Shown here piece by piece: positions 1,407-37,937 of a stretch of DNA of 64,000 nucleotides. Below the pieces are notes generated by a model. The model searched no databases. It was not told the DNA's origin and saw only the letters and a program-made list of their open reading frames with translations. The stretch comes from Nitrospirota bacterium (GTDB lineage: Bacteria > Nitrospirota > Thermodesulfovibrionia > UBA6902), in the NCBI GenBank assembly GCA_016234115.1, contig JACRHD010000021.1:26185-90184 (forward strand), given 5' to 3'. Numbering within the stretch: the first letter of the stretch is position 1; the number at the start of each line of letters is the position of its first letter. The translations under genes and the position numbers were made by a program.

Positions 1407-1442
1407 ACCGTTCAAGGTGTTCAAACCGCTCAAACTGTTGTA
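1407..1442. repeat. Degenerate 9-mer tandem repeat
   Basis: accgttcaa ggtgttcaa accgctcaa actgttgta directly after the stop codon. Confidence 0.6.
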
Positions 1443-1475
1443 CCGTTATGCTGTCCTGCCTTTGCCAAAGACCGA

Positions 1476-1504
1476 TTGATGAAAGGGCTAAAGATTGTTA
1501 TAGT
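1476..1504 (+). promoter_or_regulatory. Putative sigma70 promoter for archease-rtcB
   Basis: TTGATG-N17-TATAGT with an extended TG. Confidence 0.45.
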
Positions 1505-1533
1505 CTTACTGTTGACTTTCAGGGTGAATTAAA

Positions 1534-1995
1534 TTGGAAAAATATGAGCAGATAGACATCTCCGGTGACGTAGGGTTACGGGTAAGAGGACATTCCGTTA
1601 CCGAGCTTTTTGTCAACGCGGCTGAAGGGATGGGGGAGCTCATTACGGACACGTCTCTCATAGACGTTAAAGAAGAAAAGGAGGTCGCGCTGACGTCCGA
1701 CGGCACGGAGGGCCTCCTTATACAGTGGCTTAATGAGCTTATATTCCTCTTCGATACGCATGGCTTTATCGGGAAAATATTTCGTGTCGATATAACCGGG
1801 GGGCAAGGGTCAGGGGGCAAGGGGCAAGGGGACAGAGGTCGGGATGAGGTTAAATTGACCGCAAAAATTTCAGGTGGTCTCTTTGATCAGGGAGTCAACG
1901 AAAGCCGGCTGCTCCTGAAGGCCGCGACGTATCATGATCTGTCGATCAGACAGGTTGGGTCATATTGGGAAGCGGAGGTGATTTTTGATATATAA
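1534..1995 (+). CDS. Archease (RtcB activator)
   Basis: N-terminal D...DVG, WLNELIF, C-terminal KAATYH...VIFDI; adjacent to rtcB; TTG start. Confidence 0.9.
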   Translation: MEKYEQIDISGDVGLRVRGHSVTELFVNAAEGMGELITDTSLIDVKEEKEVALTSDGTEGLLIQWLNELIFLFDTHGFIGKIFRVDITGGQGSGGKGQGDRGRDEVKLTAKISGGLFDQGVNESRLLLKAATYHDLSIRQVGSYWEAEVIFDI

Positions 1996-2017
1996 GAGGG
2001 TGAAAGGAACAGAAGGC

Positions 2018-2102
2018 GTAGTTAGTAGTTAGTAGTTAAGGGAGGCACTTCAAGAATCCCCCCTTAACTACTTGCTACTAACTACTTACTACTTACTACT
2101 TA
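2018..2102. repeat. Palindromic heptamer element, TAGTAGT family
   Basis: (gtagtta)n-AAGGG...CCCTT-(aactact)n. Confidence 0.85.
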
Positions 2103-2210
2103 ATCGGGCCGCCTTCGTGCCGGTAACAGGCGAAGCATTCTCAAGCACTCATCCCTCTTTCAATCAGTTTGATAATGCCCTATAATTAGAACACCAGTTT
2201 GAAAGGTGAA

Positions 2211-3656
2211 ATGACCATCGAAGGATTGCACAGAATCGACCGCGACAGGCTTGAGGTCCCCAAGGGCTACAAATCCGGGATGAGGACCAATGGGATCATC
2301 TATGTCGATGAGGCCCTGGAAAAAGAGCTTGAGAAAGACGCCATTGATCAGGTCGCGAATGTGGCCACGCTGCCGGGAATTGTCGGCTCGTCCCTTGCAA
2401 TGCCGGATATCCATACAGGATACGGTTTCAGCATAGGAGGGGTGGCGGCGTTTGATCTGAAAGAAGGCATTATCTCCCCCGGCGGCGTAGGTTACGACAT
2501 CAACTGCGGGGTCAGGCTTCTGAGGACCACTCTTGTCAGAGAAGAAGTCCTCCCTAAAATAAAAGAGCTTATTGAGGGCTTTTACAGGGACATCCCTACA
2601 GGAGTGGGATCTAAAGGGAAACTGCGTCTTGATTCCGCTGAGCACAGGAAAGTCCTTCTCAGGGGCGCGCGGTGGGTCGTGGAGCAGGGCTTCGGGGAAA
2701 AAGAAGACCTCGACCATACCGAATCTCACGGCTGCATTGAGGGCGCCGACCCCGAACTCATCAGTGAAAAGGCGTATGAGCGCGGAAAAGCGCAGCTTGG
2801 GACCCTCGGCTCCGGCAATCATTTTACAGAGGTCCAGTACGTGGATGAGGTGTACGACGAGAAAATTGCGAACAGCCTCGGCCTGTTCAGAAACCAGATA
2901 ACCGTGATGATCCATACCGGCTCTCGCGGCTTCGGCCATCAGGTCTGCACGGATTTCATCGAAGTGATGCAGAAGGCAGTGCAGAAATACGGAATAGAGC
3001 TCCCGGACAGGGAGCTTGCGTGCACGCCCTTTAACAGCCCCGAAGCGCGGGACTACCTGGCGGCAATGAGGGCTGCCGCGAATTTTGCATGGGCGAACAG
3101 GCAGCTTATCATGCACTGGGTAAAAGAGTCATTCATGAATATTTTCAGGACCGGGCCGAAGGCGCTCGGAATGGGCCTCATATACGATGTCGCGCATAAT
3201 ATAGCCAAAATTGAAGACCACACGGTCGGCGGGCGGGAGGTGAAGCTCGTTGTCCACCGTAAAGGCGCGACAAGGGCCTTCCCCCCGGGACATCCCGAGC
3301 TTCCTGATGTTTATAAACATGTGGGCCAGCCTGTTATAATACCCGGTGACATGGGAAGGGCGTCTTTCGTGCTCATCGGCACTGAAAGAGGGATGAAGGA
3401 ATCCTTCGGCTCCACCTGCCACGGCGCCGGCAGGCTGATGTCGAGGCATCAGGCCATAAAGAGGGCCAAAGGCAGGTCGATCTGGAGAGAGATGCAGGAC
3501 CTGGGAATCACCGTGAGGGCCACTGGAAGGGGCACTCTCGCCGAGGAGATGCCGGAGGCCTACAAGGATGTTGCAAATGTTGTAGACGTCGTGCACAGCG
3601 CGGGGTTATCGAAGAAGGTGGCAAAGCTCAGACCGCTTGGAGTGATAAAAGGATAA
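2211..3656 (+). CDS. rtcB: RNA-splicing ligase RtcB
   Basis: MPDIH.GYGF, GYDINCG, GSGNHF, HTGSRG, HRKGAT, HGAGR, EE.PEAYK. ATG 2211 follows AAGGTG. Confidence 0.97.
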   Translation: MTIEGLHRIDRDRLEVPKGYKSGMRTNGIIYVDEALEKELEKDAIDQVANVATLPGIVGSSLAMPDIHTGYGFSIGGVAAFDLKEGIISPGGVGYDINCGVRLLRTTLVREEVLPKIKELIEGFYRDIPTGVGSKGKLRLDSAEHRKVLLRGARWVVEQGFGEKEDLDHTESHGCIEGADPELISEKAYERGKAQLGTLGSGNHFTEVQYVDEVYDEKIANSLGLFRNQITVMIHTGSRGFGHQVCTDFIEVMQKAVQKYGIELPDRELACTPFNSPEARDYLAAMRAAANFAWANRQLIMHWVKESFMNIFRTGPKALGMGLIYDVAHNIAKIEDHTVGGREVKLVVHRKGATRAFPPGHPELPDVYKHVGQPVIIPGDMGRASFVLIGTERGMKESFGSTCHGAGRLMSRHQAIKRAKGRSIWREMQDLGITVRATGRGTLAEEMPEAYKDVANVVDVVHSAGLSKKVAKLRPLGVIKG

Positions 3657-3734
3657 GCTCTCAGCGATCATCTTTCAGCAGTCGGCATATCATTTTTCTC
3701 AGGATGAGCGCTGACGGCTGAGAGCTGACTGCTA
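3656..3734. repeat. Palindromic heptamer element, TCAGC/GCTGA family
   Basis: agctctcagcgatc...gctgacggctgagagctgactgct. A related copy is at 34587-34644. Confidence 0.7.
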
Positions 3735-3737: not shown

Positions 3738-4601
3738 GTGATCATGGAAAAAGAACAGTTAAAAATCGGCAGGATCCCTTACGCGAACTTTTACCCGATA
3801 TTTTACTATTTCGATAAAGAGTGCAAAAATTCGGCATATAAGTTTGTAAAAGGCGTTCCTTCAAAGGTCAACAGGATGCTGAGGGAGGGCGAACTTGATA
3901 TAAGCCCGTCATCATCCATCGAGTTTTTGCGAAACAGGAGCGAATATCTCATACTGCCCTGGTTTTCCATCAACTCCTCCGGGTGCATCAACAGCATCCT
4001 CCTGTTTTCGCAGTGCCCCATACAGGAGCTCGGAGGGAAGGACATAGCGCTTTCTTCGGAATCCGAGACATCCGCCGCGCTGCTGAGGATTATACTGAAA
4101 GAATTTCTTTCCCTGAAATGCAGGTTCAGCCCGGTCCACAGGCGGAGCGTAAAAAATATCCTCTCCTCCTTCTCAGCGGTCCTCCATATCGGGGACACGG
4201 CGATGAGGGAAGCGAAGAAATTAGAGTCAAGAGTCAAGAGTCAAGAGTCAAGTGTTCTTAACTCTAAACTCCTGACTCTTAACTCTATCTATGTTTACGA
4301 CCTGGGGGATCTGTGGTTTAAATATACGGGGCTCCCCTTCGTGTTCGCCTTATGGATAGTCAGGAAAAACGCCGCTTCTGAAAAAGATGAGCTTGTCAGG
4401 CAATTCGCGTCAGACCTGCTGAAGGCGAAAAAGTATGCGAGGAGGCAATTCCCTCTGATAGCCGGTGAGACGCCCCAGAGAAAATGGCTGAGCGAAAAAG
4501 AACTCATTGATTACTGGAAGACGATCTCTTATGATTTCACAGAAAAACAGATGGAGGGGCTCAACCTGTTCGAGAAATATTTGAAGAAATTCAGGCAATG
4601 A
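3738..4601 (+). CDS. mqnA: Chorismate dehydratase (futalosine menaquinone pathway)
   Basis: IPYAN..P, PS.VN..L..G.LD, S.TS..LL, IGD.A, YDLG.LW...TGLPFVFALW. Confidence 0.88.
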   Translation: MIMEKEQLKIGRIPYANFYPIFYYFDKECKNSAYKFVKGVPSKVNRMLREGELDISPSSSIEFLRNRSEYLILPWFSINSSGCINSILLFSQCPIQELGGKDIALSSESETSAALLRIILKEFLSLKCRFSPVHRRSVKNILSSFSAVLHIGDTAMREAKKLESRVKSQESSVLNSKLLTLNSIYVYDLGDLWFKYTGLPFVFALWIVRKNAASEKDELVRQFASDLLKAKKYARRQFPLIAGETPQRKWLSEKELIDYWKTISYDFTEKQMEGLNLFEKYLKKFRQ

Positions 4602-6679: not shown

Positions 6680-6819
6680 AAAAGAAAAGGGTCAAGGGTC
6701 AAGGGTCAAGGGTCCGGCAAATGAATGTATCCGGAAGTAGGTAAAAACATGCTCCGGTAACCATGTCAGCAATAATTTGAAATATCTGATAATCAATAAC
6801 ATGAAAGGTTGCCGGCTAC

Positions 6820-7995: not shown

Positions 7996-8067
7996 GTAAA
8001 TTATTGTTTACAAAATCCCCCTTCATCCCCCTTTTACAAAGGGGGAAAGATATTTTCATGCCCCTGC

Positions 8068-8144
8068 TTAACTCATAACTCATAACTCATAACTCATAAC
8101 TCATAACTCTTAACTCTTAACTCTTGACTCTTGACTCATAACTC
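8068..8144. repeat. 11 x 7-nt tandem array (ATAACTC/TTAACTC/TTGACTC)
   Basis: 77 nt read directly; it supplies the last codons and stop of pdxA. Confidence 0.9.
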
Positions 8145-12998: not shown

Positions 12999-13051
12999 AC
13001 GGAGCCCAGCGTGTTCTTTTTCCGCAACCTGAGTTTTAATCCCGCCCTGTC

Positions 13052-15514: not shown

Positions 15515-15531
15515 TATCTATCTCCCAAATT

Positions 15532-23798: not shown

Positions 23799-23833
23799 GC
23801 GAATTCTTTGCCCTATGCGCTTTGCTCTCTGCC

Positions 23834-24505: not shown

Positions 24506-24547
24506 ACTAAAATTTGAGATTTGAAATTTGAGATTTGATATTTTTTA

Positions 24548-25777: not shown

Positions 25778-25785
25778 AAGAAAAG

Positions 25786-25902
25786 ATTAAAAGTCAAACA
25801 TCAAAAATCAAAATGACAGATTAAAATGTAAAGATGTCGGCTTGCCGCTATTTTTGAGTTTTGATTTGTCATTTTGCATTTTGATTTTTCATTTTTGAGT
25901 TT
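25786..25902. repeat. AT-rich palindromic heptamer element (TCAAAAA/TTTTGA family)
   Basis: atcaaaaatcaaaatgaca...tgtcattttgcattttgatttttcatttttga. A related half-element is at 24510-24540. Confidence 0.75.
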
Positions 25903-25903
25903 T

Positions 25904-27394
25904 TTATTGTTCCGGTTTTAACTGAGGAAATAGTATCACGTCCCTTATCGAAGAAGTATTCGTCAGGAGCATGAACAGCCTGTCTATGCCGATACCCTCT
26001 CCCGCGGCCGGAGGCATGCCGTATTCGAGCGCCCTCAGGAAGTCCTCATCCATGAACGCAGCTTCCTCGTCGCCCTGCTTCCTTGCTTCCACCTGCTCGA
26101 GGAACCTTCCCCTCTGGTCGGCAGGATCGTTCAGCTCTGAAAAGGCATTTGCGACTTCCCTGCCGCCTATGAAAAGCTCGAACCTCTCAACCAGTTCAGG
26201 TTTGTCCTTCCGCCTCCTGGCAAGGGGCGAAAGCTCCACGGGATAATCAGTGATAAAAGTTGGCTGGACAAGCTTGGGCTCGACCTTCTTCTTGAATATC
26301 TCATCCAATATCTTGCCGTGGGTCGTTTTTCTGTCGACATCTATCTTATTGTCGAGGGCATACTGCCGCGCCTTTTCCACGTCCTGAAAAACAGAGGGGT
26401 CCACGCCTTCCTGCGACATTACATCGAGCATTGTGACCCGCCGCCACGGTGGAGTAAAGTCAATCACGGTCTGGTCGCTCTCGGACTCGCCAAAAGGGAC
26501 TTTCAGCCCGCCGTTTATCTCCTTGCAGAGATAGGGGACAAGCTCCTCAGTGAATGTCATCAGGTAATTGTAATCCTCGTAGGATATATAGAACTCGAGC
26601 ATGGTAAATTCGGGATTGTGTTTTGCTGAAATGCCCTCATTTCTGAAATTTTTATTTATCTCGTAGACCCGCTCATAACCGCCCACAAGGAGTTTTTTAA
26701 GATACAGCTCAGGGGCTATCCTGAGGTAAAGGTCCAGGCCCAGGGCGTTGTGGTGCGTCTTGAAGGGGCGCGCGGCAGCTCCTCCGGGGATCTGGTGCAT
26801 CATCGGGGTCTCGACTTCTATAAATCCCCTCTCATCGAAATAGTTCCTGATGGCCATTATCAGCCTGCTCCGCTTTGTGAAAAGCTCCCTGACATGGGGG
26901 TTGACGATAAGGTCTACATACCGCTGTCTGCACCGTGTCTCTATGTCCTTGAGCCCGTGCCATTTCTCGGGCAGGGGCCTGAGCGACTTGCATAAAAATT
27001 CAATGCCGCCGACCTGGACCGTCAGCTCGTTTGTCTTTGTCCTGAACAGGCGGCCGGTTACGGCTACTATGTCTCCAATGTCGAGGTTTTTGAAAATGTC
27101 CGGATTCGAGGAGATGACGTCCTTGGAGAAATAGACCTGTATCCTGCCGGATGAGTCCTGGATGTGCGCGAAGGCGGTCTTCCCGAAATCCCTGAATGAA
27201 ATAAGGCGTCCCGCAAGCGCAACCCGGTCCTCCCGCCCCTCAAGGTCTTCCTTGCTGAGTCCGCCGAATTTGTCCGCTATGCCGGCAGCCTTGTCCTTTA
27301 CGGCAAAAGGCGCCCCGTACGGCTCGACGCCGGATTCACGGAGCCGGGCAAGTTTCTTCAGTCTTTCCTGCATTAATTCGTTAGTGTCTTCCAA
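25904..27394 (-). CDS. lysS: Lysyl-tRNA synthetase class II
   Basis: LPEKWHGL, RQRYVDL, GGAAARPF.TH, FRNEG, YGMPP..G.GIGIDRL. Confidence 0.97.
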   Translation of the reverse strand: MEDTNELMQERLKKLARLRESGVEPYGAPFAVKDKAAGIADKFGGLSKEDLEGREDRVALAGRLISFRDFGKTAFAHIQDSSGRIQVYFSKDVISSNPDIFKNLDIGDIVAVTGRLFRTKTNELTVQVGGIEFLCKSLRPLPEKWHGLKDIETRCRQRYVDLIVNPHVRELFTKRSRLIMAIRNYFDERGFIEVETPMMHQIPGGAAARPFKTHHNALGLDLYLRIAPELYLKKLLVGGYERVYEINKNFRNEGISAKHNPEFTMLEFYISYEDYNYLMTFTEELVPYLCKEINGGLKVPFGESESDQTVIDFTPPWRRVTMLDVMSQEGVDPSVFQDVEKARQYALDNKIDVDRKTTHGKILDEIFKKKVEPKLVQPTFITDYPVELSPLARRRKDKPELVERFELFIGGREVANAFSELNDPADQRGRFLEQVEARKQGDEEAAFMDEDFLRALEYGMPPAAGEGIGIDRLFMLLTNTSSIRDVILFPQLKPEQ

Positions 27395-27420
27395 TGTTCA
27401 CCTTTCTTAAGTATTAAAAG

Positions 27421-27516
27421 CATGGTCCGACAGGCCCACCATGACAAGCTTGTCACCCTTTGCCTGTCGAAAGGTAGCCTGCCCAAGGGCTGGATTCCCG
27501 CCTTCGCGGGAATGAC
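27421..27516. repeat. Composite REP-like hairpins
   Basis: tccgacaggcccaccatgac/gtcaccctttgcctgtcgaa followed by ggattcccgccttcgcgggaatgac. Confidence 0.7.
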
Positions 27517-27522
27517 GACATT

Positions 27523-27792
27523 TTACTCTTCAAGGAAATTGGACAGTATCTTCGTCTTCTCCTCAATCATCCCGTCGAGGCGCTGCAGCTCCATCCTGAG
27601 CTTGAAAAGCTCGTCGGTTATGCCGAAGGCGGCCATGACCATCGCCCTCGACTGATTGATGCTGGGCGCGACGCTGTAAATCTCTTTCAATTTTTCGTCA
27701 ATATACTTTGCCAGCGATCTTATGTAGGCCTCTTCATCATCCGTCTTGATGGAATAGCTCTGGCCTAATATCTGGACCTCTACGGAACGCAT
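27523..27792 (-). CDS. zapA: Cell division protein ZapA
   Basis: V.V.ILGQ.Y.I, YI..LA.YID.K, VMAA..I.DEL, C-terminal coiled coil. Confidence 0.88.
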   Translation of the reverse strand: MRSVEVQILGQSYSIKTDDEEAYIRSLAKYIDEKLKEIYSVAPSINQSRAMVMAAFGITDELFKLRMELQRLDGMIEEKTKILSNFLEE

Positions 27793-27796
27793 GGGG

Positions 27797-28066
27797 TCAG
27801 AGCTCCACCGACTCGAGTTCTTTGATCAGGCTCTCCAACTGGGACTTTACTGTCTCGCGCTCGTTGTTAAGCTTCTCCACGTCGGTCTTCAACGCCTCGG
27901 CGCTCTTCAGATCGCGCTTAAGCGCGGCTATCTCTTCATCCCTGTCGGCAAGTTCATCCTTTAACTTGGTCATTTTAGAGGCCAAATCCGCATTTTCCTC
28001 GGACAGGGCTTTAATCCTCTCGATTACCTTTGTGATTTTCTCTTCAAGCATCTGTACTTTTTCCAC
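27797..28066 (-). CDS. zapB: ZapB-like coiled-coil protein
   Basis: GTG start after AAGGAGG; LEEKI..VIE coiled coil; upstream of zapA. Confidence 0.7.
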   Translation of the reverse strand: MEKVQMLEEKITKVIERIKALSEENADLASKMTKLKDELADRDEEIAALKRDLKSAEALKTDVEKLNNERETVKSQLESLIKELESVEL

Positions 28067-28173
28067 AGATGTTCCCTCCTTCGAAAAATTAAACAGTCCT
28101 TCTTGCATTAGCAAGTAAATTATCAAAACCAGGCCAAAAAGTAAACCCTTAAAGAGGGTATGGGGGAAAGAAT

Positions 28174-28236
28174 GTAGTCAGTAGTTAAGGGGGGAAGTTC
28201 TTAAAGCAATCCCTTAACTACTAACTACTAACTACT
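28174..28236. repeat. Palindromic heptamer element, TAGTAGT family
   Basis: gtagttaaggg...cccttaactactaactactaactac. Confidence 0.85.
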
Positions 28237-28241
28237 TGCGG

Positions 28242-30356
28242 CTAATTCTTCGCGGTCATCTGCGGACCCTCCAGCGGCAGGCCGTTCAGGGCGCGGTACT
28301 GCCAGTAGCTGCGAAGGACTTTTTTCACATACGACCTTGTTTCCTTATAAGGAATGTTCTCGATGAATTCAATGAGATCGTCCCTGTAATATTTCTCCTG
28401 CCATCTCTTAAGGGCATTTTCTCCGGCGTTGTACGCCGCAAGAGCAAAGGGGACGTCCCCGAATTCGTCTATCAGTATCGACAGATAATGAGCTCCGAGC
28501 AGGACATTCTTGTCAACGTCGTGGATTTCAGAATCATCGTCGAGACGCAAGCCCACGTCTTTCTTCAACCTGTTTGCGGTAGCAGGCATAAGCTGCATGA
28601 GCCCCATCGCCCCGGCCCAGGAGACCGCCTTCGGGTCAAAGCGGCTTTCTTCCCTGATTACAGCGGCCACAAGATACTTGTCCACGTCCTGAGAGGCCGA
28701 GGCGGCTTCTATAATATTATCGAAGCCGAAGGGGAATGAGTAGGGAAGGAACTCCCTGCCCTCTTCTTTTTCCGCGACGGCTATTATCTTCCTGTACTCG
28801 CCTAATCCCATCGCGATCCGGCCTAAATACAGGAAGTCGTTCCTGTTTTTATTGTGCTTCAGGGCGTCGATTATCTCACTTACCGCCTCGTCCCTCATGC
28901 CGAGCAATGCGAGGGCCTCAATCCTGTCATATGTATCTCCCTCAGGTCTTGCGGGTCCCGCAAGCTCCATCCTCTCCTGCAATGAACGCCCGGGCGAGCG
29001 CATCTTGATAAGATACCCGTAAAAGCTCCTGTCATGGGGAAGGCCGCTGAAGAAGTCGATGCCTTCACTATCGCATGTGACGTTGTCGTCCGGCTGAGCA
29101 GATACTTTGTGTTTCAGGCATTCACTTGTCGCCCTTTCATGTGTCCTCGCCTTCCAATAGAGGTACATGTAATAGTTCCCGCTCTTTTCATATGTAGCAA
29201 GCTGTGAGAAATATTGAAGCGCCGCACTGTACCTGCCCGAAATGTAATTCAGCCAGGCGGCCCCCCAGAGGGCCTCTTCCTTCTTCGCGGGGAATTTGTC
29301 TATGACCTCGTTGTAGTTCTTTCCTGAGTCCTCAACCCGACCCCGTCTCCCAAGCTCTTCCGCCTCCATAATAAGCAGGCGGGCCAGCCTTTCATCACCC
29401 GGATATTTTTTCCTGAATTCCTTTTTAATCTTGCCGAAATCCGCACTGTTGTCGGTCCTGTGAAAGGCCCAGCCCTTATAGTACAGCGCTTCGGCGGACT
29501 TCACCATACCGAAGGTTTCAGCCGCCCTGTCATATTGCTTCATCTTAAAGCGGCACATGCCCAGAGAGAACCTGATCCGGTCCTTCTCTGCCTTGCCGGC
29601 GAGCTTAAGGGCGCTTTCATATTCCGTCTCCGCCCTCTGAAAATTAAGTTTCTCATACAGCTTGTCGGCCCTTTTCAGGATTTCATCCTTTGTAAAGGTG
29701 TCGGACTTGAGCAGCTCCAATTCCTTCAATGCGCTGTTGGATTCGGGCACGGCATTGATATAGATGTCCTTGAGGAGCCGGACAGCCTGTTCGGACTTAT
29801 CCAGGAGCACGGCAAGGGTCAGTTTATATTCCCAGTCGGAAGGATAAGCCTCAATATATTGAGACAGGACATCCCTCGCCTCTTTTTCCTTTTTCAGGGC
29901 AAGCAGGGCCTTTACTTCCGCTCTTGTCGCGCGCTGCGCCAGGAGACGGCCTTTAATCTGCCCGGCCGTACTGATTACGTTCTCGAATGTCCCGGCGTCC
30001 ATGTATGTGTCGGCGAGTAATATAAGGGCGTAGTTTTTCAGCAAGGGGTAAGTATCGGCGGCCTTCAGCAGATAATTCTCAGCCTTATCAAAAGGGCCTG
30101 CTTCCCTATAAAGCCTGCCAAGCAGGAAATAAGCCTTCTGCCTTTCACCTAAACCGCTGCGCTCAATCTCCAGCAGGACATCTTCCGCATCTTTATATGA
30201 CCGGGACTTGATAAGTTCCGCCGCCCCCCTGAGTCGGCCCTCAAGGTCACCGTTTCCGTCGGCTTCCGGTCCGGAAGCGATGCAAGCGCCGGACAACGCC
30301 CATAAGCCGGTAAGCAAAACCAATAGCGGTATCTTTAAATACGAAAAGATTCGCAT
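28242..30356 (-). CDS. slt: Soluble lytic murein transglycosylase with TPR repeats
   Basis: IREESRF, GAMGLMQLMP.TA, AAYNAG, IPY.ETR.YVK. Confidence 0.88.
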   Translation of the reverse strand: MRIFSYLKIPLLVLLTGLWALSGACIASGPEADGNGDLEGRLRGAAELIKSRSYKDAEDVLLEIERSGLGERQKAYFLLGRLYREAGPFDKAENYLLKAADTYPLLKNYALILLADTYMDAGTFENVISTAGQIKGRLLAQRATRAEVKALLALKKEKEARDVLSQYIEAYPSDWEYKLTLAVLLDKSEQAVRLLKDIYINAVPESNSALKELELLKSDTFTKDEILKRADKLYEKLNFQRAETEYESALKLAGKAEKDRIRFSLGMCRFKMKQYDRAAETFGMVKSAEALYYKGWAFHRTDNSADFGKIKKEFRKKYPGDERLARLLIMEAEELGRRGRVEDSGKNYNEVIDKFPAKKEEALWGAAWLNYISGRYSAALQYFSQLATYEKSGNYYMYLYWKARTHERATSECLKHKVSAQPDDNVTCDSEGIDFFSGLPHDRSFYGYLIKMRSPGRSLQERMELAGPARPEGDTYDRIEALALLGMRDEAVSEIIDALKHNKNRNDFLYLGRIAMGLGEYRKIIAVAEKEEGREFLPYSFPFGFDNIIEAASASQDVDKYLVAAVIREESRFDPKAVSWAGAMGLMQLMPATANRLKKDVGLRLDDDSEIHDVDKNVLLGAHYLSILIDEFGDVPFALAAYNAGENALKRWQEKYYRDDLIEFIENIPYKETRSYVKKVLRSYWQYRALNGLPLEGPQMTAKN

Positions 30357-30395
30357 AACCTATATTAATTCAAAAACCGTTTGTAAACAACCTCT

Positions 30396-30464
30396 CAGGG
30401 TCCAGGGGCCTGGGTCAAGGGGCCGGGGTATTTCCTCGCCCCTAACTACCGGCCCCTGGACCCT
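30396..30464. repeat. Palindromic heptamer element, GGGTCAA family (degenerate)
   Basis: agggtccaggggcc...ggcccctggaccct. Confidence 0.7.
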
Positions 30465-30538
30465 ATTGCTGCGTGGGGAAAAAGATACAAACCGAATTAC
30501 GAGATTTTGAACTTTAGAAAAACACGAGAGGGCTGAAA

Positions 30539-30613
30539 TGGAGGCGGCGAGCGGATTCGAACCGCTGAATAAAGGTTTTGCAGACCTCTCCCTTGCCACT
30601 TGGGTACGCCGCC
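30539..30613 (-). tRNA. tRNA-Cys(GCA)
   Basis: GGCGGCG...CT-GCA-AA...GGTTCGAATCC...CGCCGCC-T-CCA. Confidence 0.95.
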
Positions 30614-30738
30614 GTTAAAGCTGTCACCTGCAGGGACATACGGCTGTTCGCCCTACAGGCAGCTTAAAGTTTACCAGATTTTGCCATTGCTTTGCCAGTA
30701 GCTGATTTAACCCGGATTTGATTCACCATCAAAAGACA

Positions 30739-30902
30739 AACCACAGAGACCACAGAGGAAAAAAATAAATATTAATCCACAGATTACACTGATTAACACA
30801 GATGTATTTAGAAATATTGTTTCAATCTGTGAAATCTGTGAAATCTGTGAAATCTGTGAAATCTGCGGATAAATAAATCTTTTCTCTGTGACCTCTGTGG
30901 TT
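30739..30902. repeat. Nested 9-mer palindromic elements
   Basis: Outer arms (accacagag)2/(ctctgtg..)2; inner arms cacagatt.../(aatctgtga)4-5. Confidence 0.85.
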
Positions 30903-30934
30903 AGGTGGTGGATTCTGGTCAAACCGTTCAAGAG

Positions 30935-31019
30935 TGGTGCGAGAGAGGGGAGTTGAACCCCTACGGTTTTACCCACTGGATCCTAAGTCCAGCGCGTCTG
31001 CCAGTTCCGCCACTCTCGC
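30935..31019 (-). tRNA. tRNA-Leu(TAG)
   Basis: GCGAGAG-TGGCGGAACTGGCAGACGC...CT-TAG-GA, long variable arm, GGTTCAACTCC, ACCA. Confidence 0.95.
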
Positions 31020-31107
31020 TTGGTTATGATTTTACAGCTATTTTGATAATTGTGTCCAGAAAGGCCGGCGCGGTGTCTTAGTCCTGAAGGACGGATGTGT
31101 TTGGACG

Positions 31108-31153
31108 AAAATAAAAAGCTATGTCATGAACCATCTCTGCTTCATGACATAGC
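31108..31153 (-). terminator. Intrinsic terminator after tRNA-Asn
   Basis: Perfect 13-bp stem gctatgtcatgaa/ttcatgacatagc followed on the minus strand by TTTTTATTTT. Confidence 0.65.
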
Positions 31154-31169
31154 CCTAAGATTCAAAAAA

Positions 31170-31242
31170 CTCCCGGGGAGGGATTCGAACCCCCGACAGG
31201 GTGGTTAACAGCCACCTGCTCTGCCGGCTGAGCTACCCGGGA
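31170..31242 (-). tRNA. tRNA-Asn(GTT), CCA not encoded
   Basis: TCCCGGG-TAGCTCAG...CT-GTT-AA...GGTTCGAATCC-CCCGGGA-G. Confidence 0.93.
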
Positions 31243-31257
31243 ACTTTATTATTTCTT

Positions 31258-31338
31258 AGCCGCGAATGAACACGAATTCTCACGAATGACTTTGACATAT
31301 TCTTGCAATTCGTGTCTCTTCGTGTCAATTCGCGGCTG
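31258..31338. repeat. Palindromic 10-mer element (CACGAAT family)
   Basis: agccgcgaatgaacacgaattctcacgaat...attcgtgtctcttcgtgtcaattcgcggct. Confidence 0.8.
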
Positions 31339-31340
31339 AA

Positions 31341-32300
31341 TTATTTGTCTTTCTCTTCTGCGCCGAAGGATGCCGCCTCTTTCTGGAGGCGCTCCCACTG
31401 TTTGTCTACATACTCCTGCGCCTGTTTCAGCATCCATTCGTTTTGAGGGCTGAACATATGTCTGAAACTTCCCTGAGGTTTCAGGAAATCCACAAGGGGT
31501 TTCTTTTCCTTCGGCCTGTAGGTAATTTTTGTGACCCCGTTCTCGATCTCATACAGCGGCCAGTAGCAGGTATCGACGGCAAGCCTGGAAAGCGCTATCG
31601 CGTCGTTTGTCTGGCTGCGCCATCCACGGTTGCACGGGGAGATGACATTCAGAAATTTCGGACCTTTGATCTCAAACGCCTTCTGGACTTTCTTCATCAG
31701 GTCCATCCAGTTGGACGGGGACGCCTGCGCCGCATATGGAATACCGTGAGCAGCCATTATCCTTGTGAGGTCTTTTCTCTGCTGCAGCTTGCCGGGGATT
31801 GCGTCTCCCGCCGGACACGTTGTCGTATTTGCTCCAAAGGGCGTCGCGCTTGAACGCTGGATGCCCGTATTCATGTACGCGCCGTTATCATAGCATATGT
31901 ACATCATGTCCTGACCGCGCTCCATGGCCCCTGAAAGGCTCTGAAAACCAATATCGTAAGTGCCGCCGTCGCCTCCGAAGGCGACGAATTTTACATTCCT
32001 GTCTTCAAGCCTTCCCTGTTTCACAAGGGACTTGTACATGGCCTCAATCCCGGACGCCGTCGCAGCGGCATTTTCGAATGCGCTGTGCATCCAGGGTATC
32101 TTCCACGAAGTGAACTGCTGGATACATGTGGAAACCTCAAGACATCCTGTTGCGTTCGCTGCGACAACAGGATAGTCTGTTGCCATGAGGACCTGTTTGA
32201 TGATGATCGGGGCCCCGCAGCCGGAGCACATCCTGTGGCCGTGAACGAACCGTTCTTCTCCCTTTGCAAGTTCTCTTAATTTAAGTGGTTTCGCAGTCAT
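31341..32300 (-). CDS. porB: Pyruvate/2-oxoacid:ferredoxin oxidoreductase beta
   Basis: GHRMCSGCG, ATGCLEV, GGDGG...DN..YMNTG.QRS TPP motif. Confidence 0.92.
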   Translation of the reverse strand: MTAKPLKLRELAKGEERFVHGHRMCSGCGAPIIIKQVLMATDYPVVAANATGCLEVSTCIQQFTSWKIPWMHSAFENAAATASGIEAMYKSLVKQGRLEDRNVKFVAFGGDGGTYDIGFQSLSGAMERGQDMMYICYDNGAYMNTGIQRSSATPFGANTTTCPAGDAIPGKLQQRKDLTRIMAAHGIPYAAQASPSNWMDLMKKVQKAFEIKGPKFLNVISPCNRGWRSQTNDAIALSRLAVDTCYWPLYEIENGVTKITYRPKEKKPLVDFLKPQGSFRHMFSPQNEWMLKQAQEYVDKQWERLQKEAASFGAEEKDK

Positions 32301-32323
32301 TTCTCATTACCTCTCTTTTGGTA

Positions 32324-32400
32324 AAGTAGTTAGTAGTAAGTAGCAAGTAGTTAAGGGAACTGCCTCCCCCTAACTACTAACTACTATCTACTTGCTACTA
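32324..32400. repeat. Palindromic heptamer element, TAGTAGT family
   Basis: Located between porA and porB. Confidence 0.85.
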
Positions 32401-32404
32401 TAAT

Positions 32405-33583
32405 CTATTCTCTTACTCCGATATATTCTTTTACGGTCTTGACCTTTCCGGTCTTTGCAATCGTTATCAACTCATCAATGACATACTCGGCCTGATCAGG
32501 CAGGTAGTCCCTGCCGCCTAATCCGAAGATCTTGTTGGTCACGGCAGGTTTTGAGTCCATCTGCATGACCGCGCCTGCGACCTCCGAATAGAGGGGCCCC
32601 ATTCCGCCGAAAGAGTCCGCCCTGTCAAGCACGGCTATGGCCTTTACATGCTTCAGGGCATCGGCCATTTCAGCAAACGGAAAAGGCCTGAACATCCTCG
32701 GCTTCAGAAGGCCGATCCTGACTCCCTTATCTCTGTATCTGTCAATGATGTCTTTGGTCGTTCCTGCGGCGGAGCTCATGACGACAATCGCCATTTCCGC
32801 GTCCTCAAGCCTGTATGTTTCAAATAATCCGTATTTCCTGCCGGTCATCTTTTCGAAGTCGGCGGCGACTTCAAGCACCACCCTGGGCGCCTTCGTCATT
32901 ACTTCGTGCTGCGCCCTCTTGTACTCATGATAGAGATCGGTCAGGATAAGCGGGCCGTAGCTTTTCGGCTTGTCGAGATCGAGCAGCGGATGTACCGGGA
33001 CGAACTTTCCCACAAACTTCTTTACATCTGCATCATCTATATATTCCACGCGTTCAATGGAGTGGCTGACGATAAAACCGTCCATACAGACCATCACGGG
33101 AAGCCTTACGTCCAGGTGCTCCGCGATCCTGAATGCCTGAATCAAATTGTCGTATGCCTCCTGCGCGTTCTCGGAATAGAACTGCAGCCAGCCGGTGTCT
33201 CTGGCGCCCATTCCGTCGGAATGGTCGCCGTGGATGTTCAGGGGAGCTGAAAGGGCCCTGTTCACCAGCGGCATTACGATGGGCAGCCTTGTGCCCGCAG
33301 CTATATACAGCATCTCCCACATGAGGGCAAGCCCCTGTGAAGAGGTTGCAGTCGCGACCCTGCCTCCTGCTGCCGCGGCGCCTATACAGGCGCTCATTGC
33401 GCTGTGCTCACTTTCAACAAGCACCAGCTCCGTGTCCACTTTACCGTCATTGACAAAGCTCGAAAACCGCTGCATAAGGTCCGTGGCCGGCGTAATAGGA
33501 TATGCCGCGCATACATCGGGGTTGATCTGCTTCAGGGCCTGTGCGCAAGCTTCATTTCCGGTTACCGCTACAATCTTGCCCAT
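32405..33583 (-). CDS. porA: Pyruvate/2-oxoacid:ferredoxin oxidoreductase alpha
   Basis: AYPITP, ESEHSAMS, TSSQGL, NRALSAP, GLGGRD. Confidence 0.92.
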   Translation of the reverse strand: MGKIVAVTGNEACAQALKQINPDVCAAYPITPATDLMQRFSSFVNDGKVDTELVLVESEHSAMSACIGAAAAGGRVATATSSQGLALMWEMLYIAAGTRLPIVMPLVNRALSAPLNIHGDHSDGMGARDTGWLQFYSENAQEAYDNLIQAFRIAEHLDVRLPVMVCMDGFIVSHSIERVEYIDDADVKKFVGKFVPVHPLLDLDKPKSYGPLILTDLYHEYKRAQHEVMTKAPRVVLEVAADFEKMTGRKYGLFETYRLEDAEMAIVVMSSAAGTTKDIIDRYRDKGVRIGLLKPRMFRPFPFAEMADALKHVKAIAVLDRADSFGGMGPLYSEVAGAVMQMDSKPAVTNKIFGLGGRDYLPDQAEYVIDELITIAKTGKVKTVKEYIGVRE

Positions 33584-34451: not shown

Positions 34452-34690
34452 AACAATTTTCCTCCGAAATCTAATAGATAAAAGAGAGACTTAATAATAG
34501 CTTATCGTTCTGAAATTCTTCAAGGGGGGGTACAATGAGGGGCAAGGGGGAAGGGTCAGAGACCCGGGGAGGGAACTCCCGGCAACAGCAATCAGCTAAG
34601 CCGGTCCGTCTTTTTTGAGCTGACCGCTGAGAGCTGATAGCTGAATGCCGACGTCATATTCGTCAGAGACAGACCTCCGACGCGCCGGCG

Positions 34691-35218
34691 TCAGCCCGCA
34701 AAAAGGTTTACCAATTTCTGCAGGAATGAGTCGGTCCTTCCGGCCCAGAATGTCTCAACAAGACCGACCCGCCAAACGCCGTCTTCTCTTAAGACCTTCA
34801 GGGTCACCGGGTCACTTGCTTTCCTGTGCGTGATTATTATTTCCGCCTTCTGCTTATCTATAACACCCATTTCCCATTTACATTCCTCCAGGATCATGTC
34901 GGGATTAAAGGTGTTGAGAAAGGCGTTCCAGTAGCTGGTCGAGATGACCCCTGAATTTTCGAAATCCTTTATTATGTCATCCTTATTGGTCCCGCCGCCC
35001 GCCTTACGCGTCGCCCTTATAATATCGCTGATGATCGTTTCCCGGGATTTTAAAGACAGTAAATTCCAGGCGGTATTAAAGTCATTCTTCTTTAAGGATA
35101 TGAAGAACCTTTCGGATGATTCGAGGATTGCATCTTCCGGATTGCCAGTCCCATCGGGAAATGCCTCGCCGAAGCCGAAGGTAAACAGCAAGAGAAACAG
35201 AAATATCGACTTGCGCAT
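34691..35218 (-). CDS. Exported hypothetical protein
   Basis: Signal peptide; AW.LLS and EDG.WRV patterns reminiscent of NTF2-like folds. Confidence 0.6.
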   Translation of the reverse strand: MRKSIFLFLLLFTFGFGEAFPDGTGNPEDAILESSERFFISLKKNDFNTAWNLLSLKSRETIISDIIRATRKAGGGTNKDDIIKDFENSGVISTSYWNAFLNTFNPDMILEECKWEMGVIDKQKAEIIITHRKASDPVTLKVLREDGVWRVGLVETFWAGRTDSFLQKLVNLFAG

Positions 35219-35311
35219 GATTCAAAAAGTCGCGGTTCGCAGTCAGTAGTCAAGGGAAGAAGGCATGAATAGCCTCTCCCTTAACTGCTTGACCGCTTTT
35301 CCGCTCAATTC

Positions 35312-35773
35312 TTAATGATGATGCGACGTAGTCGTGCCGCCGCTTCCGCCTGCGGCCACGACAAGGGCCGAAGCGCCGCCGACAACGGCAGCCCCCGCGG
35401 CAATCGTGCCCACGCTGACGCCGGTCCCGACGGCCATTCCGGCTGCTGTTCCGGCTGTCGAAGCAGCGACGGATGAAGCGACCGATGTATACCCGGCGGC
35501 ATTAAGCGTCGAAACGAGACTCGCCTGTTCCGCAACAACGTACCCGACGACATTGCCCGTTGCCTGGCTGACTACCGGCAGCGCAACCTGGGTGCCCGTG
35601 ACTGCCGGGGCCGCTGCCCCCGCCACATATGTGCCGCCGGCCTGCGCCGCAATCTCCTGCGCGATCGCCTCCGAGGCTATGTTCGCAGTCACCGCTTCAG
35701 CGTATGAAGAGACCGTAAGCCCGAAGTTGATCAAAAAAGACAGAACAACAAATAATGTTGTGACCTTTTTCAT
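35312..35773 (-). CDS. Secreted Ala/Gly/Val/Thr-rich protein, GfcA/YjbE-like
   Basis: Signal peptide, low complexity, hydrophobic helix then GGSGGTTTSHHH; next to the YjbH gene. Confidence 0.6.
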   Translation of the reverse strand: MKKVTTLFVVLSFLINFGLTVSSYAEAVTANIASEAIAQEIAAQAGGTYVAGAAAPAVTGTQVALPVVSQATGNVVGYVVAEQASLVSTLNAAGYTSVASSVAASTAGTAAGMAVGTGVSVGTIAAGAAVVGGASALVVAAGGSGGTTTSHHH

Positions 35774-35808
35774 TTTTCCACCTCTTTAAAGTTTAGATTG
35801 TTTTTATT

Positions 35809-37872
35809 TTAAAACAGCATCGTTTTTTCCCTGTCAAGAAACACTTTTGCATTCCTCCCGATGAAATCGAACAGCGTCTCGAAATGTTCGATGTCCTGAC
35901 CTGTGTCTCTTGTCCAGGGGGACAAGCTGTAGTTATAGGCAGTCCGCGAATCCGTCCCTTTAAACAGCCTCAGGGGAATGGACACGCCGATTCCCTTGTC
36001 ATGGTATCCCCTGTTAAACCCGTCTTCAAACCCGGAAGTGTCAGTAATGCCGTACCACGCCCGGATGGTGACCCCATTTATAAATTTCGATAAAGTGACC
36101 CTTGCGCCGTAATCGCCCGCAAGGAACCTCCCGGCCTTGACGTCCACCGCCATCCCGGTTTCAGGGACATTCAGCCGCGTATTGAAAAAAGCCGTGGTAT
36201 AAAGGTCCCTGACGCCGTCGCGTTTGAATTTCAGGATATTATCGGGGTCCCTTTTTTTCACGGCGCTCCCGCTCGCTCCGAAATACACCCTCCCGTCAAA
36301 GGCAGGCGTCGCTACCTCGGCATCGACGCCGGAGTACTGGACCTCGAGATGTCCCGCGGCGAGCCTGCCATATACGTCAGGGGTCACTCTCTTTATCCAG
36401 TCGAACATCAGCCTGTTGAGCACGACACTCTTCTCTTTATAAAGCACTATATCGGACCTGACCGGGTCGGAAACCGGTTCATTAACAGTGGAAATATTAT
36501 TCAGCGGATACGTCACGAGGCCCGTAATCAAAGATAACCCCTTCAGCGGCTGATAATTTATCCAGCCCTGGACGCCCAGCCTGTATTTAAAAAAACCCGA
36601 AGGGTCATTTAAAAATGTCTCCAGGGCGGGCCTGACGCCGTAGCTCCAGGACGCCTTGCGCCCGACGCGCGTCTCCGGCGCCCCTGTTACAACGGTCCTG
36701 AATTCCGAAACAGCCAGAAAGTCGTCAAGCGACATCCTGTCCGCATACAGCTCGGCTATATCTCTTCCGGCGCACTCGAATTCCATGACGGGGATGCCTC
36801 TCTCAGTCAGTATTATATGTACCCGGCCGGCATACGCCGGATTGATGTCGGCAATTATTCTCAGGACTTTCCCGACCGCCCTGCTGTTGAGAAAATACTT
36901 ATCATTGTGCGCCGTGATCCGCAATTCGTCATCCCCGACAGTCACCCCTACGTCGCTGAAGCCCGAACCGGACATGGCCCTGGCGATCCTCGTGAGTTCC
37001 GGGTCCGTCTTTTCAGAAGGGCCTTCCTGATAACTCCGGTCGTACAGCGGAACAAGCGGGACGCCGATATCGAAGGCAACAGAGGCATTGACGCCGAACT
37101 GGTTGCCTCTCTGCCAGCTCATCCCGACCTCCGACCATTTCGAGGGTTTGTACCGCAGGCCGAAATTATATTTTGACGGCGCCGGCGAGGTAAAATATTT
37201 TTCCCGGGCCGGGTCCGTCTGGACGTGATATTTTATCGGGCTATATTCAAGCATCAGGGCATATTTCTCCGAAGGCGCAAATTGTATGCCCCCGAAAAAC
37301 AGGGAATCCTCCAGCCAGCCTCTTGGGTCGGTGATGATCTCCAGTTTCAGATTACCCGTCTGGGCGCTGAGGGGCCTTTTGCCGAACCTCCCGTTGCCGA
37401 AACCCATCGTAAAATCGAAAGGGTATATTTGCTTGCTGACGGAGATATACTGGGCCGCGTAACGCCTGGTGCCGTGAGGGTCCATAATGCCTAACGCCAC
37501 TGCGGGCAAATACTTCCCTTCGGGGATGAACTGATATTTTAAATCCACGGCCTTGTCCTTATAATCACCGTACCCCTGAAATGTCGGGTTAATTACGTCG
37601 ACGCCCAGGACCTCGGTTATCCTTCCCGTAATTTCGAGCCCCTTAAGCGGGCTTATCGCGCCGTAATAATATCTGTACGGCGTTACCTGGCTGATTCCTA
37701 AGCGGTAGCTGTTCTTTCTCATCACCCTTGCAGTCGGGACCTCCATAAGGCCCGTATCTCCGCGGTTTGAAGGATAAGTGAAAGGCTCGTCACCGGCGCA
37801 TGCGTCAGAGAAAGCAGAAAACAGAAAGAAGAGAGCAAAGAGAAGACAGGCATAAGACCTTGCCGAATACAT
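35809..37872 (-). CDS. yjbH: YjbH/GfcD outer-membrane barrel
   Basis: G.TGLMEVPTAR, YKDKAVDLKY, GRFLAGD.G.R, YHDKG...SIP, PWTRD.GQ. Confidence 0.85.
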   Translation of the reverse strand: MYSARSYACLLFALFFLFSAFSDACAGDEPFTYPSNRGDTGLMEVPTARVMRKNSYRLGISQVTPYRYYYGAISPLKGLEITGRITEVLGVDVINPTFQGYGDYKDKAVDLKYQFIPEGKYLPAVALGIMDPHGTRRYAAQYISVSKQIYPFDFTMGFGNGRFGKRPLSAQTGNLKLEIITDPRGWLEDSLFFGGIQFAPSEKYALMLEYSPIKYHVQTDPAREKYFTSPAPSKYNFGLRYKPSKWSEVGMSWQRGNQFGVNASVAFDIGVPLVPLYDRSYQEGPSEKTDPELTRIARAMSGSGFSDVGVTVGDDELRITAHNDKYFLNSRAVGKVLRIIADINPAYAGRVHIILTERGIPVMEFECAGRDIAELYADRMSLDDFLAVSEFRTVVTGAPETRVGRKASWSYGVRPALETFLNDPSGFFKYRLGVQGWINYQPLKGLSLITGLVTYPLNNISTVNEPVSDPVRSDIVLYKEKSVVLNRLMFDWIKRVTPDVYGRLAAGHLEVQYSGVDAEVATPAFDGRVYFGASGSAVKKRDPDNILKFKRDGVRDLYTTAFFNTRLNVPETGMAVDVKAGRFLAGDYGARVTLSKFINGVTIRAWYGITDTSGFEDGFNRGYHDKGIGVSIPLRLFKGTDSRTAYNYSLSPWTRDTGQDIEHFETLFDFIGRNAKVFLDREKTMLF

Positions 37873-37937
37873 TACCGCCTATATGCGCTGTCTGTTTGTT
37901 CCCATGACCCTTGCCCCATGACCTTTGCCCCTCTCTT

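Follow-up and report, generated by a model that had tools for sequence, protein, structure and literature searches.

Gene-less hairpins with tandem heptamer arms in a Nitrospirota genome, compared with rRNA intervening sequences and REPINs

Dispersed and mostly non-coding tandem heptamers, with words of their own, are found in heterocystous cyanobacteria as short tandemly repeated repetitive (STRR) sequences. We know of no accepted explanation for the excess of heptamer repeats in many bacteria, for the protein family PF05635, or for the intervening sequences (IVS) of rRNA. Here, we analyze hairpins whose two arms consist of tandem copies of a short word in a 64,000-nt stretch of a Nitrospirota genome (assembly GCA_016234115.1, contig JACRHD010000021.1, positions 26,185 to 90,184), referred to below as the window. 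The source assembly is a groundwater genome of 3.50 Mb in 69 contigs and is 97% complete.

Several described repeats share parts of this design. The 23S rRNA IVS of Coxiella burnetii has a 28-bp stem, with tandem heptamers ahead of an open reading frame (ORF) of the S23p family, and RNase III cuts within the stem (PMC4990558). PF05635 is described as the Avd-like family of diversity-generating retroelements (DGR) (PMC10053308). The over-represented tandem heptamers of Xanthomonas (GGGAATC) and of Nostoc/Anabaena are ∼90% intergenic and close to a neighboring ORF, and Xanthomonas has 70 to 75 convergent heptamer pairs able to form stem-loops (PMC4692102); the terms "helix bundle," "intervening sequence," and "S23" are absent from the text of that paper. 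Geobacter metallireducens carries four or five tandem units of 7 to 8 nt, mostly as opposite-strand pairs, between and inside genes (PMC2700814). In the literature that we searched, which took in the main text of PMC2700814 and PMC4692102, only the Coxiella IVS paper placed heptamers beside an S23p ORF, and no paper linked free-standing cassettes with four-helix-bundle or GxxExxY genes, or their gene-less forms, to the heptamer excess.

We lean toward reading the window elements as gene-less members of a repeat superfamily without a transposase, which resembles both IVS and REPINs (hairpins formed by doublets of repetitive extragenic palindromes, or REPs) and whose RNA stems are probably cut by RNase III. 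The genome brings together gene-less hairpins by the hundred and a few armed cassettes that share their arm consensus, along with words kept by a protein clade across phyla and clean filled and empty alleles in conserved genes. In these alleles the insert boundaries can be read to the base, and a vague resemblance becomes experimentally approachable.

Arm anatomy, cassettes, and gene-less families

Tandem arrays were called with Tandem Repeats Finder (TRF), and the sequences were then read by eye. TRF returned 2803 rows in the genome, of which 1031 had a period of 7, compared to 80 period-7 rows in a third-order Markov copy of the genome of the same size. Arrays with a period of 6 to 11 and at least 2.5 copies made up a set of 1373 arms, 915 with period 7; the 563 of these 915 that lie outside ORFs are a rough share, because ORF-based gene calls over-extend starts across repeats. 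With rotations and strands merged, we counted 200 distinct heptamer words. Same-word pairs separated by less than 50 nt were inverted in 170 cases and direct in 1, and a reverse-complement partner was located within 150 nt of 434 of 848 heptamer arms versus 16 of 848 random places. The heptamer arms cluster into 643 sites (1.8 per 10 kb), and neighboring sites shared a word 65 times, compared to 38.6 ± 5.7 under shuffling.

Quantification of 186 close pairs revealed a mean stem of 31.7 nt with 25.9 Watson-Crick pairs and a median loop of 21 nt. Arm length is sharply peaked, with 555 of the 915 heptamer arms at 27 to 35 nt (∼4.3 units). Within the unit, four or five core positions are ∼98% invariant and two others vary freely, and the stems are therefore mismatched about every 7 nt. 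In the AAGAGTY family, for example, position 2 is variable in 100 of 519 units versus 7 to 10 of 519 at positions 3 to 6; part of the variation at position 7 of AAGAGTY and at position 6 of AAGGGKC stems from pooling words into families. The first-pass annotation of the window had treated the unit words as unrelated, which is not wholly the case, since the purine-rich arm comes first in 166 of the 186 pairs and many words fit an AAG-N-G-type pattern.

The same annotation noted similar arms around four-helix-bundle and GxxExxY genes in other anaerobes, and this link holds for the present genome. Seven PF05635/TIGR02436 four-helix-bundle genes are present in the genome, five of which are enclosed by inverted heptamer arms, although the right arm of the cassette on contig C27 is reduced to one unit. 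(G000 denotes the genome of the window, G001 to G023 are related genomes, and C-numbers are contigs.) All five lie outside the window, so that ORF-containing copies do exist in this genome, and no PF05635 ORF was found in the loops of the window elements. One GxxExxY gene fragment of this genome is situated between 9-mer arms. Across the genus, an automatic, lenient rule with two mismatches allowed gave inverted same-word arms around 33 of 46 four-helix-bundle genes, a few of these pairs being doubtful, and two GxxExxY genes of relatives sit inside arms of the 8-mer word CACAGAGR. Apart from ordinary genes that just happen to lie between neighboring elements, PF05635 and GxxExxY were the only genes found inside arms.

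The cassette moves as a unit, arms included, into unrelated contexts: in a pair with 90% amino acid identity (G000 C15 versus G006), homology runs through arm, gene, and arm, and the flanks are unrelated. Word similarity tracks protein similarity. Among five pairs with at least 85% identity, two share the word outright, two more have the same or a close word on one side only, with no clean arm pair called, and the one pair of 100%-identical proteins has no arms. Pairs at 72 to 75% identity have similar or different words, and those at 60% or below have different words. For the C27 protein we found 43 relatives at 41 to 77% identity, 23 of them with clean arms, in Nitrospirota (the closest), Ignavibacteria, Bacteroidota, Acidobacteriota, Chloroflexota, Desulfobacterota, Elusimicrobia, and Patescibacteria. 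The words of these relatives keep a GTAG core, with 7 of 20 within one change of AGTAGTT versus 1 of 23 other genus cassettes and 2% of random heptamers, a rough comparison in which kin are not independent. By this comparison the word stays with its protein clade across phyla. In the PDB, the C27 protein has a match to 2gsc, XCC0516 (E 5e-19), which is described as a homopentamer (ring) (PMC4990558).

That gene-less elements could be empty copies of such cassettes, as had been proposed for the window, has direct support in one family. In G000, 27 to 32 AGTAGTT hairpins have a common arm order (AGTAGTT-AGTAGCA-AGTAGTT-AGTAGTT), an inner AAGGG...CCCTT stem, and a loose loop consensus, and this arm order and inner stem, with the odd AGTAGCA unit, recur in the left arm of the C27 cassette. 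Families of 8- and 9-mers have near-identical loops at separate loci. Because arm order and/or loops are shared between loci, the AGTAGTT, 8-mer, and 9-mer families descend from masters by copying. Pattern hits for AGTAGTT number 91 in G000, 41 in G010, and 22 in G004. Two AGTAGTT hairpins of G000 (C4:99134 and C4:99276) lie 142 nt apart with nearly identical loops, the sole such pair in the family, and G010 has two perfect AGTAGTT arrays (C6:76626-76716 and C58:19291-19388) of ∼13 to 14 units versus the usual four.

Placement and turnover of the elements

At every coordinate named in the first-pass annotation TRF called an array, most of them inverted pairs that form long hairpins. The elements of the window are given below in window coordinates, with the strand for those in frame in a gene; z-scores compare each RNA fold with shuffled sequence.

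1407-1441: weak run of ∼9-nt units just 3' of the stop of a DUF3943 gene (483-1403); read from the sequence, with the gene from Pfam, and not a TRF call
1800-1831, plus strand: single arm GGGGCAA x4.6 (GGGTCAA type; TRF), in frame in the archease gene (1534-1995); extra peptide GGQGSGGKGQGD
2018-2102: AGTAGTT-family (TAGTAGT-type) hairpin, archease/RtcB junction; RNA fold -38.2 kcal/mol, z -5.3
3656-3733: TCAGC/GCTGA-type hairpin, from the RtcB stop (3656) to the MqnA start (3738); z -3.1
4223-4286, plus strand: AGAGTCA/TGACTCT hairpin (GAGTCAA type), in frame in the chorismate dehydratase (MqnA) gene (3738-4601); z -7.0
6687-6714: single arm AAGGGTC x4 (GGGTCAA type), immediately upstream of the alanine dehydrogenase start (6679, minus strand)
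8069-8144: long single arm TAACTCA x10.9 (GAGTCAA type), beginning at the PdxA stop (8136)
15532-15616: AGAGTYA hairpin (GAGTCAA type), from the NuoF-like stop (15619) to the NuoG-like start (15514); z -6.4
17478-17564: AGTAGTT hairpin (TAGTAGT type), ferredoxin/NuoF-like junction; z -6.1
17972-18051: GGGTCAA hairpin, from the response-regulator/NuoE-like gene to the ferredoxin gene; -52 kcal/mol, z -6.6
18953-19030: AAGGGTTC hairpin of period 8, between two response-regulator genes; z -7.3
24510-24543: single arm ATTTGAG x4.6 (TCAAAAA type), from the LolCE stop to the LolD start
25786-25908: AAAAATC/ATTTTTG hairpin (TCAAAAA type), LysS/LolCE junction; z -3.1
28174-28236: AGTAGTT hairpin (TAGTAGT type), after the lytic transglycosylase gene; z -6.0
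30398-30429: GGGTCAA/GGGGCC-type array (TRF), between the transglycosylase start and tRNA-Cys
30739-30865: 9-mer hairpin (ACCACAGAG ... AATCTGTGA), tRNA-Cys/tRNA-Leu junction; CAGATTACA/CACAGAT family with conserved loops; z -6.3
31258-31332: hairpin of ∼10-nt units (CACGAAT type), from tRNA-Asn to the PorB stop; z -6.9; a similar element in gap 9 of G007
32324-32400: AGTAGTT hairpin (TAGTAGT type), PorA/PorB junction; z -6.1
34537-34650: GGGGCAA-type single arm (34537-34560; GGGTCAA type), then a CAGC/GCTGA hairpin (34587-34650; TCAGC type), upstream of PorC; z -3.5
35233-35300: degenerate AGTAGTC hairpin with an inner AAGGG...CCCTT stem; z -6.0
37809-37931: AGAAAAC run (37809-37827) and pyrimidine-rich GGGTCAA-type single arm (37901-37931), polysaccharide-export gene/YjbH junction

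All 14 folded elements are long hairpins (z -3.1 to -7.3), and z is -5 or lower in 11 of the 14. Rfam matched three tRNA genes at the window elements and nothing else; two hairpins are located between tRNA genes. The array at 18953, which the first-pass annotation had assigned to the GGGTCAA type, is present, but its unit really has a period of 8.

The placement at gene junctions that had been noted for the window holds for most elements, but not for the two that are in frame in the MqnA and archease genes. Genome-wide, pairs with callable flanking genes were found at 119 co-directional, 7 convergent, and 11 divergent junctions, compared to 2035, 377, and 367 among all junctions; convergent junctions are thus depleted (7 of 137 elements versus 377 of 2779 junctions overall). 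The stem starts at a median of 6 nt past the upstream stop codon, and 83 of 119 starts fall within -10 to +15 nt. The stop codons beside elements are TAA 41, TAG 21, and TGA 20 versus 1205, 615, and 1028 genome-wide, a mild shift only.

Hairpins directly past stop codons could be plain intrinsic terminators, and repeats with G-rich words, as some are here, could form G-quadruplexes, which have been proposed for GGGAATC (PMC4692102). However, a run of at least 4 T after the stem on the sense strand was observed in just 14 of 119 elements, and none overlapped the 27 terminator-like sites in 13001-33000. Because T-runs are few, terminator-like sites are not shared, and convergent junctions are depleted, the elements are not ordinary terminators, and most words (AGTAGTT, AAGAGTY, and AAAATTC) are unable to form quadruplexes. 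We regard both explanations as extremely unlikely. The hairpins occupy tolerated positions: the space from a stop codon to the following ribosome-binding site, the gaps separating tRNA genes, and, in frame, the surface loops of proteins.

In-frame insertion is clearest in two enzymes, for which we used PDB alignments. In the MqnA gene with the element at 4223-4286, PF02621 covers residues 8 to 283 unbroken, and the alignment to PDB 7ahr has a gap at approximately residues 160 to 182. In an alignment of nine genomes, the G000 insert measures 48 nt and lies exactly between native AGAG and ACTCT; G010, which has no insert, reads ATAGAG followed directly by ACTCTCAACTCTG. A possible donor at C36:42818 matches the right arm at 29 of 30 positions, a lead only, since by a rough estimate chance would give about one such match in a family of ∼130 arms. 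In archease, PF01951 spans residues 4 to 153, and the element at 1800-1831 is a 12-residue insert relative to PDB 1jw3 that is missing in six relatives; a different palindrome occupies the same place in G007 and G008. The MqnA and archease loops are insertion hot spots across species. Arms were also located within other genes of the genome, which encode a P-type ATPase, a YjeF/Nnr protein, and a CobB/CobQ-type amidase. Rickettsia palindromic elements are likewise in-frame palindromic repeats in protein genes, tolerated as extra loops, but they have a long family consensus and no tandem-word arms, unlike the heptamer hairpins here. For annotation, the consequences of these repeats are longer ORFs, extra peptide loops in enzymes (such as MqnA and archease), and the splitting of operons whose genes are translationally coupled in relatives.

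In 19 genomes of the order we found one gene cluster in synteny, namely, response-regulator/NuoE-like, ferredoxin, NuoF-like, and NuoG-like. Of these genomes, 5 have a tandem-arm hairpin at the NuoE-like/ferredoxin junction (17972-18051), 2 have other palindromes, 1 has a short array, and 11 have just 1 to 27 nt. Tandem-arm hairpins occupy the ferredoxin/NuoF-like junction (17478-17564) in 13 of 19 genomes, with almost every word different. The NuoF-like/NuoG-like junction (15532-15616) is filled in 3 of 19, and in most relatives the two genes overlap as ATGA. Between G004 and G007, at ∼92% DNA identity, the arms at the first of these junctions are common and the loops unrelated, the words at the second are unrelated, and over ∼20 kb of synteny nearly all of 10 intergenic gaps hold different repeats. 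G004 also carries a 206-nt armed element (C36 45460-45665) with arms of the 8-mer AAGGCACA around a 120-nt interior that has no evident ORF, at a site where G007 has 4 nt between two genes overlapping as TAATG; the boundaries of this filled/empty pair fit a TAA or TA duplication. At the ruvC-ruvA junction, G000 has a four-helix-bundle cassette, G001 and G010 have a gene-less 8-mer hairpin, G004 and G007 have another gene-less hairpin, and seven other genomes have nothing. Orthologous junctions and the insides of genes are rich in presence/absence and replacement polymorphism. The hairpins are selfish inserts with fast turnover, and the same sites are struck repeatedly in related species. Four DNA runs mapped to 13001-33000 came from the same strain at low depth, with contigs from elsewhere that have the same arms appearing at the arms, and gave no usable element polymorphism.

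At the junction after the NuoF-like gene in G023 we observed a nested case, in which a GGATTCA-armed hairpin has TAAGTTA x5 in its loop. No nested tandem-in-tandem elements were found in G000; they were seen solely in relatives.

If the hairpins instead served the host, they would be selected mRNA stabilizers, attenuators, RNase III sites that uncouple genes, or binding sites of a global regulator. Their start close to the upstream stop codon (median 6 nt), their occurrence inside operons, their very stable folds, and their invariant unit core are in line with such roles, and paired tandem hepta- and octanucleotide sites have been annotated as putative global regulator sites (PMC2700814). Yet orthologous junctions are empty in many relatives or carry unrelated words, the same elements are in frame inside enzymes, the 26-kb polysaccharide cluster of the window has none, and sense-strand wobble pairs are not in excess, which together make selected regulation a quite improbable account.

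The 27 arms of the window are all confined to positions up to 37932, and none was found in the 26-kb polysaccharide/extracellular polysaccharide cluster at 37933-64000, which has a lower G+C content (0.45 to 0.53) and may be a recent acquisition. Genome-wide, 22 of 142 bins of 20 kb have no arms. The genes for tRNA-Cys, tRNA-Leu, and tRNA-Asn (30539-31243) are set apart by repeat hairpins, so that a tRNA precursor there would carry long foreign stems. Archease and RtcB are adjacent as a pair (1534-3656), and no intein is indicated in RtcB because the match is confined to the C-terminal part of the NCBIfam model of intein-containing RtcB. A REP-like palindrome, ATCCCCC...GGGGGA(T), is found at 8015-8050, beside the TAACTCA arm, and at 20608-20626; the motif is also in frame in the archease of G007 and G008 and in one intergenic gap of G007. 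This makes two kinds of small invasive palindrome in the genus.

Possible routes of spread

On the reading that we favor, the elements belong to a superfamily without a transposase. Each has two ∼30-nt arms with about four copies of a 7- to 10-nt word, the first-read arm being purine-rich on either strand. Full-length forms of this design have in the loop a gene for a four-helix-bundle protein (PF05635/S23p, related to the DGR accessory protein Avd) or for a GxxExxY protein. Spread may occur through template switching during replication, or microhomology, between the slippery tandem arms and a similar target sequence, after which units would be gained and lost by slippage. Template switching would fit the position of the insert between AGAG and ACTCT, words shared locally, missing target duplications, and the mixture of copied and mosaic families. 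Transcribed interrupted stems of ∼25 to 40 bp would be cut by RNase III, by analogy with the Coxiella IVS, and the cuts would split polycistronic and tRNA transcripts; an RNase III gene is present in the genome. The four-helix-bundle protein, a homopentamer in the solved relative, may read its own word, and it would be the obvious candidate because the conserved word and invariant core call for a clade-specific reader.

A number of observations weigh against this reading. No movement enzyme was found, and RVT_1 (reverse transcriptase) is absent from the 97%-complete assembly, which removes a reverse transcriptase as a partner of the Avd-like protein. The lengths of paired arms are uncorrelated (rho 0.10), and unit variants do not follow a mirrored order in the two arms (2575 observed versus 2567 expected matches in the periodic parts of 128 pairs; P 0.70); an initial positive test had been biased by non-periodic inner stems, and the signal was gone when only periodic parts were compared. 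G:U-compatible mismatches are not in excess on the sense strand (177 versus 198 antisense; P 0.30), and selection on the sense-strand RNA was set aside for lack of this signal. Target duplications of at least 4 nt are missing (longest shared direct flank word, 3.42 nt versus 3.38 ± 0.07 in permuted flanks) in a test that is informative for this length only and could miss duplications of 2 to 3 nt. The largest families after AGTAGTT, namely, AAGAGTY and AAGGGKC, have a mosaic unit order, unrelated loops, and no master consensus, and the G000 assembly contains no cassette with the AAGGGKC word despite ∼112 TRF rows of it. No AGTAGTT-armed cassette occurs among those examined in G010 and G004, and the AGTTGAAA cassette has not spread, AGTTGAAA being confined in G001 and G005 to its cassettes and their vicinity. 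In its simple form, the idea that a cassette drives the copy number of its word is thus unsupported in these comparisons, in which the assemblies are incomplete. At the MqnA site, the words of several species continue the native flank, with (CAGCTGT)n following on from native AAGCTGT in G006 and G002 and (AGAAGAC)n from native AAGAAGAC in G004. Lastly, each of five full-length Y1 (IS200/RAYT-like) genes of ∼310 to 330 amino acids, where RAYT stands for REP-associated tyrosine transposase, is flanked by its own short motifs, for example, GGGACGTTGTT and its reverse complement, and has no heptamer arms.

C11:40912-41889, Y1 gene
C48:13730-14662, Y1 gene
C59:127686-128621, Y1 gene
C8:7337-8326, Y1 gene
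C51:153086-154060, Y1 gene

These flanks also bear on the explanation that the elements are ordinary REPINs or MITEs (miniature transposable elements with inverted repeats) moved by a transposase encoded elsewhere, such as a Y1 gene. The genome has five or six Y1_Tnp genes, the inverted doublet with a spacer is the design of REPINs (PMC3116915, PMC3337134), and GTAG, which tags one REP class (PMC3733652), is part of the commonest word. Nonetheless, the motifs at the Y1 genes are other ones without tandem arms, on which ground we rejected a RAYT link; 200 distinct words are too many for one sequence-specific enzyme, and no target duplication accompanies the elements. Movement by such an enzyme is very unlikely in our view.

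Growth in place is a further rival. On this account, arrays would arise only by polymerase slippage with a 7-nt preference from chance near-repeats, the second arm would come from hairpin-templated copying at short native palindromes, nothing would move, and the small genes would merely reside there. The MqnA insert exactly between native AGAG and ACTCT, and the words of G006, G002, and G004 that continue native flanks, speak for it, as do the mosaic unit order and unrelated loops of the two large families and the lack of mirrored unit order and of target duplication. Heptamer number differs between Coxiella strains (PMC4990558), and a slippage hypothesis is quoted in PMC4692102. But slippage in place does not account for the arm order, inner stem, and loop consensus common to 27 to 32 AGTAGTT loci, for 8- and 9-mer families with near-identical loops at separate loci, for armed cassettes in unrelated contexts, for a word kept with its protein clade across phyla, or for wholesale replacement of elements at ∼92% identity. 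The narrow arm length and invariant unit core are also unlike free slippage. As the only process it is unlikely, and the alignment of the MqnA site gives some part to slippage or growth in place.

Beyond the transposase-free reading that we favor, we offer a bolder proposal tentatively and think it doubtful: four-helix-bundle proteins would be readers of a 7-nt word, each propagating an armed cassette and a cloud of gene-less hairpins via host replication and repair only. If true, this would be protein-guided mobile DNA without a transposase. One mechanism would then cover the bacterial heptamer excess, the cyanobacterial STRR, the paired repeats of Geobacter and Xanthomonas, and the origin of rRNA intervening sequences.

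Comparison with described systems

The likeness to STRR that the first-pass annotation saw stands insofar as the tandem heptamers here are dispersed and mostly non-coding, but the words differ and the host belongs to Nitrospirota, as do the nearest relatives of a cassette protein. Compared to the tandem heptamers of Xanthomonas and Nostoc, where one word dominates each genome, stable locations are reported, and quadruplexes have been proposed (PMC4692102), ∼200 words are in use here. The Geobacter sites are annotated as putative global regulator binding sites, and the main-text passages on them contain no species comparison or link to a small gene (PMC2700814).

Other classes of hairpin fit less well. 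Intrinsic terminators have a G+C-rich stem followed by a T-run, and a T-run is seldom present here; nor are the elements enriched at operon ends. As for MITEs, no target-site duplication of at least 4 nt was detected, one filled/empty pair fits a TAA duplication, and the genes inside arms are PF05635 and GxxExxY, with no derivation from a transposase-encoding insertion sequence. REPIN-RAYT systems consist of inverted doublets in extragenic hairpins in many copies, as here, together with a low-copy gene flanked by the same repeat and a clade-specific repeat (PMC3116915, PMC3337134). In contrast, a small four-helix bundle or GxxExxY protein takes the place of the HUH tyrosine transposase here, each arm is a tandem array of a short word whereas a REPIN has one 20- to 40-nt palindrome, and none of the five full-length Y1_Tnp genes has tandem arms.

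The Coxiella IVS, with its terminal inverted repeats, ∼28-bp stem, 5' heptamers, and S23p/PF05635 ORF in the loop (PMC4990558), has the same layout as the cassettes here. Long stems formed by terminal inverted repeats characterize the 186 pairs of this genome (mean stem, 31.7 nt), and the loop ORF, missing in the window, is found with five of the seven PF05635 genes elsewhere in the genome. The window copies differ in having no ORF and in lying between protein or tRNA genes or in coding sequence, not in rRNA; the 23S rRNA gene, sought for an IVS, is absent from the assembly. They also differ in that one genome holds hundreds of sites with many words, and cutting by RNase III is presumed here from the Coxiella case. 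Overall, the first-pass interpretation of the repeats as products of a common mechanism, possibly as empty copies of gene-bearing ones, is supported: neither a lack of ORF-containing copies, nor a lack of presence/absence polymorphism, nor an explanation of the arms as plain terminators or slippage emerged from the analysis. The elements class with REPIN- or MITE-like repeats crossed with rRNA intervening sequences.

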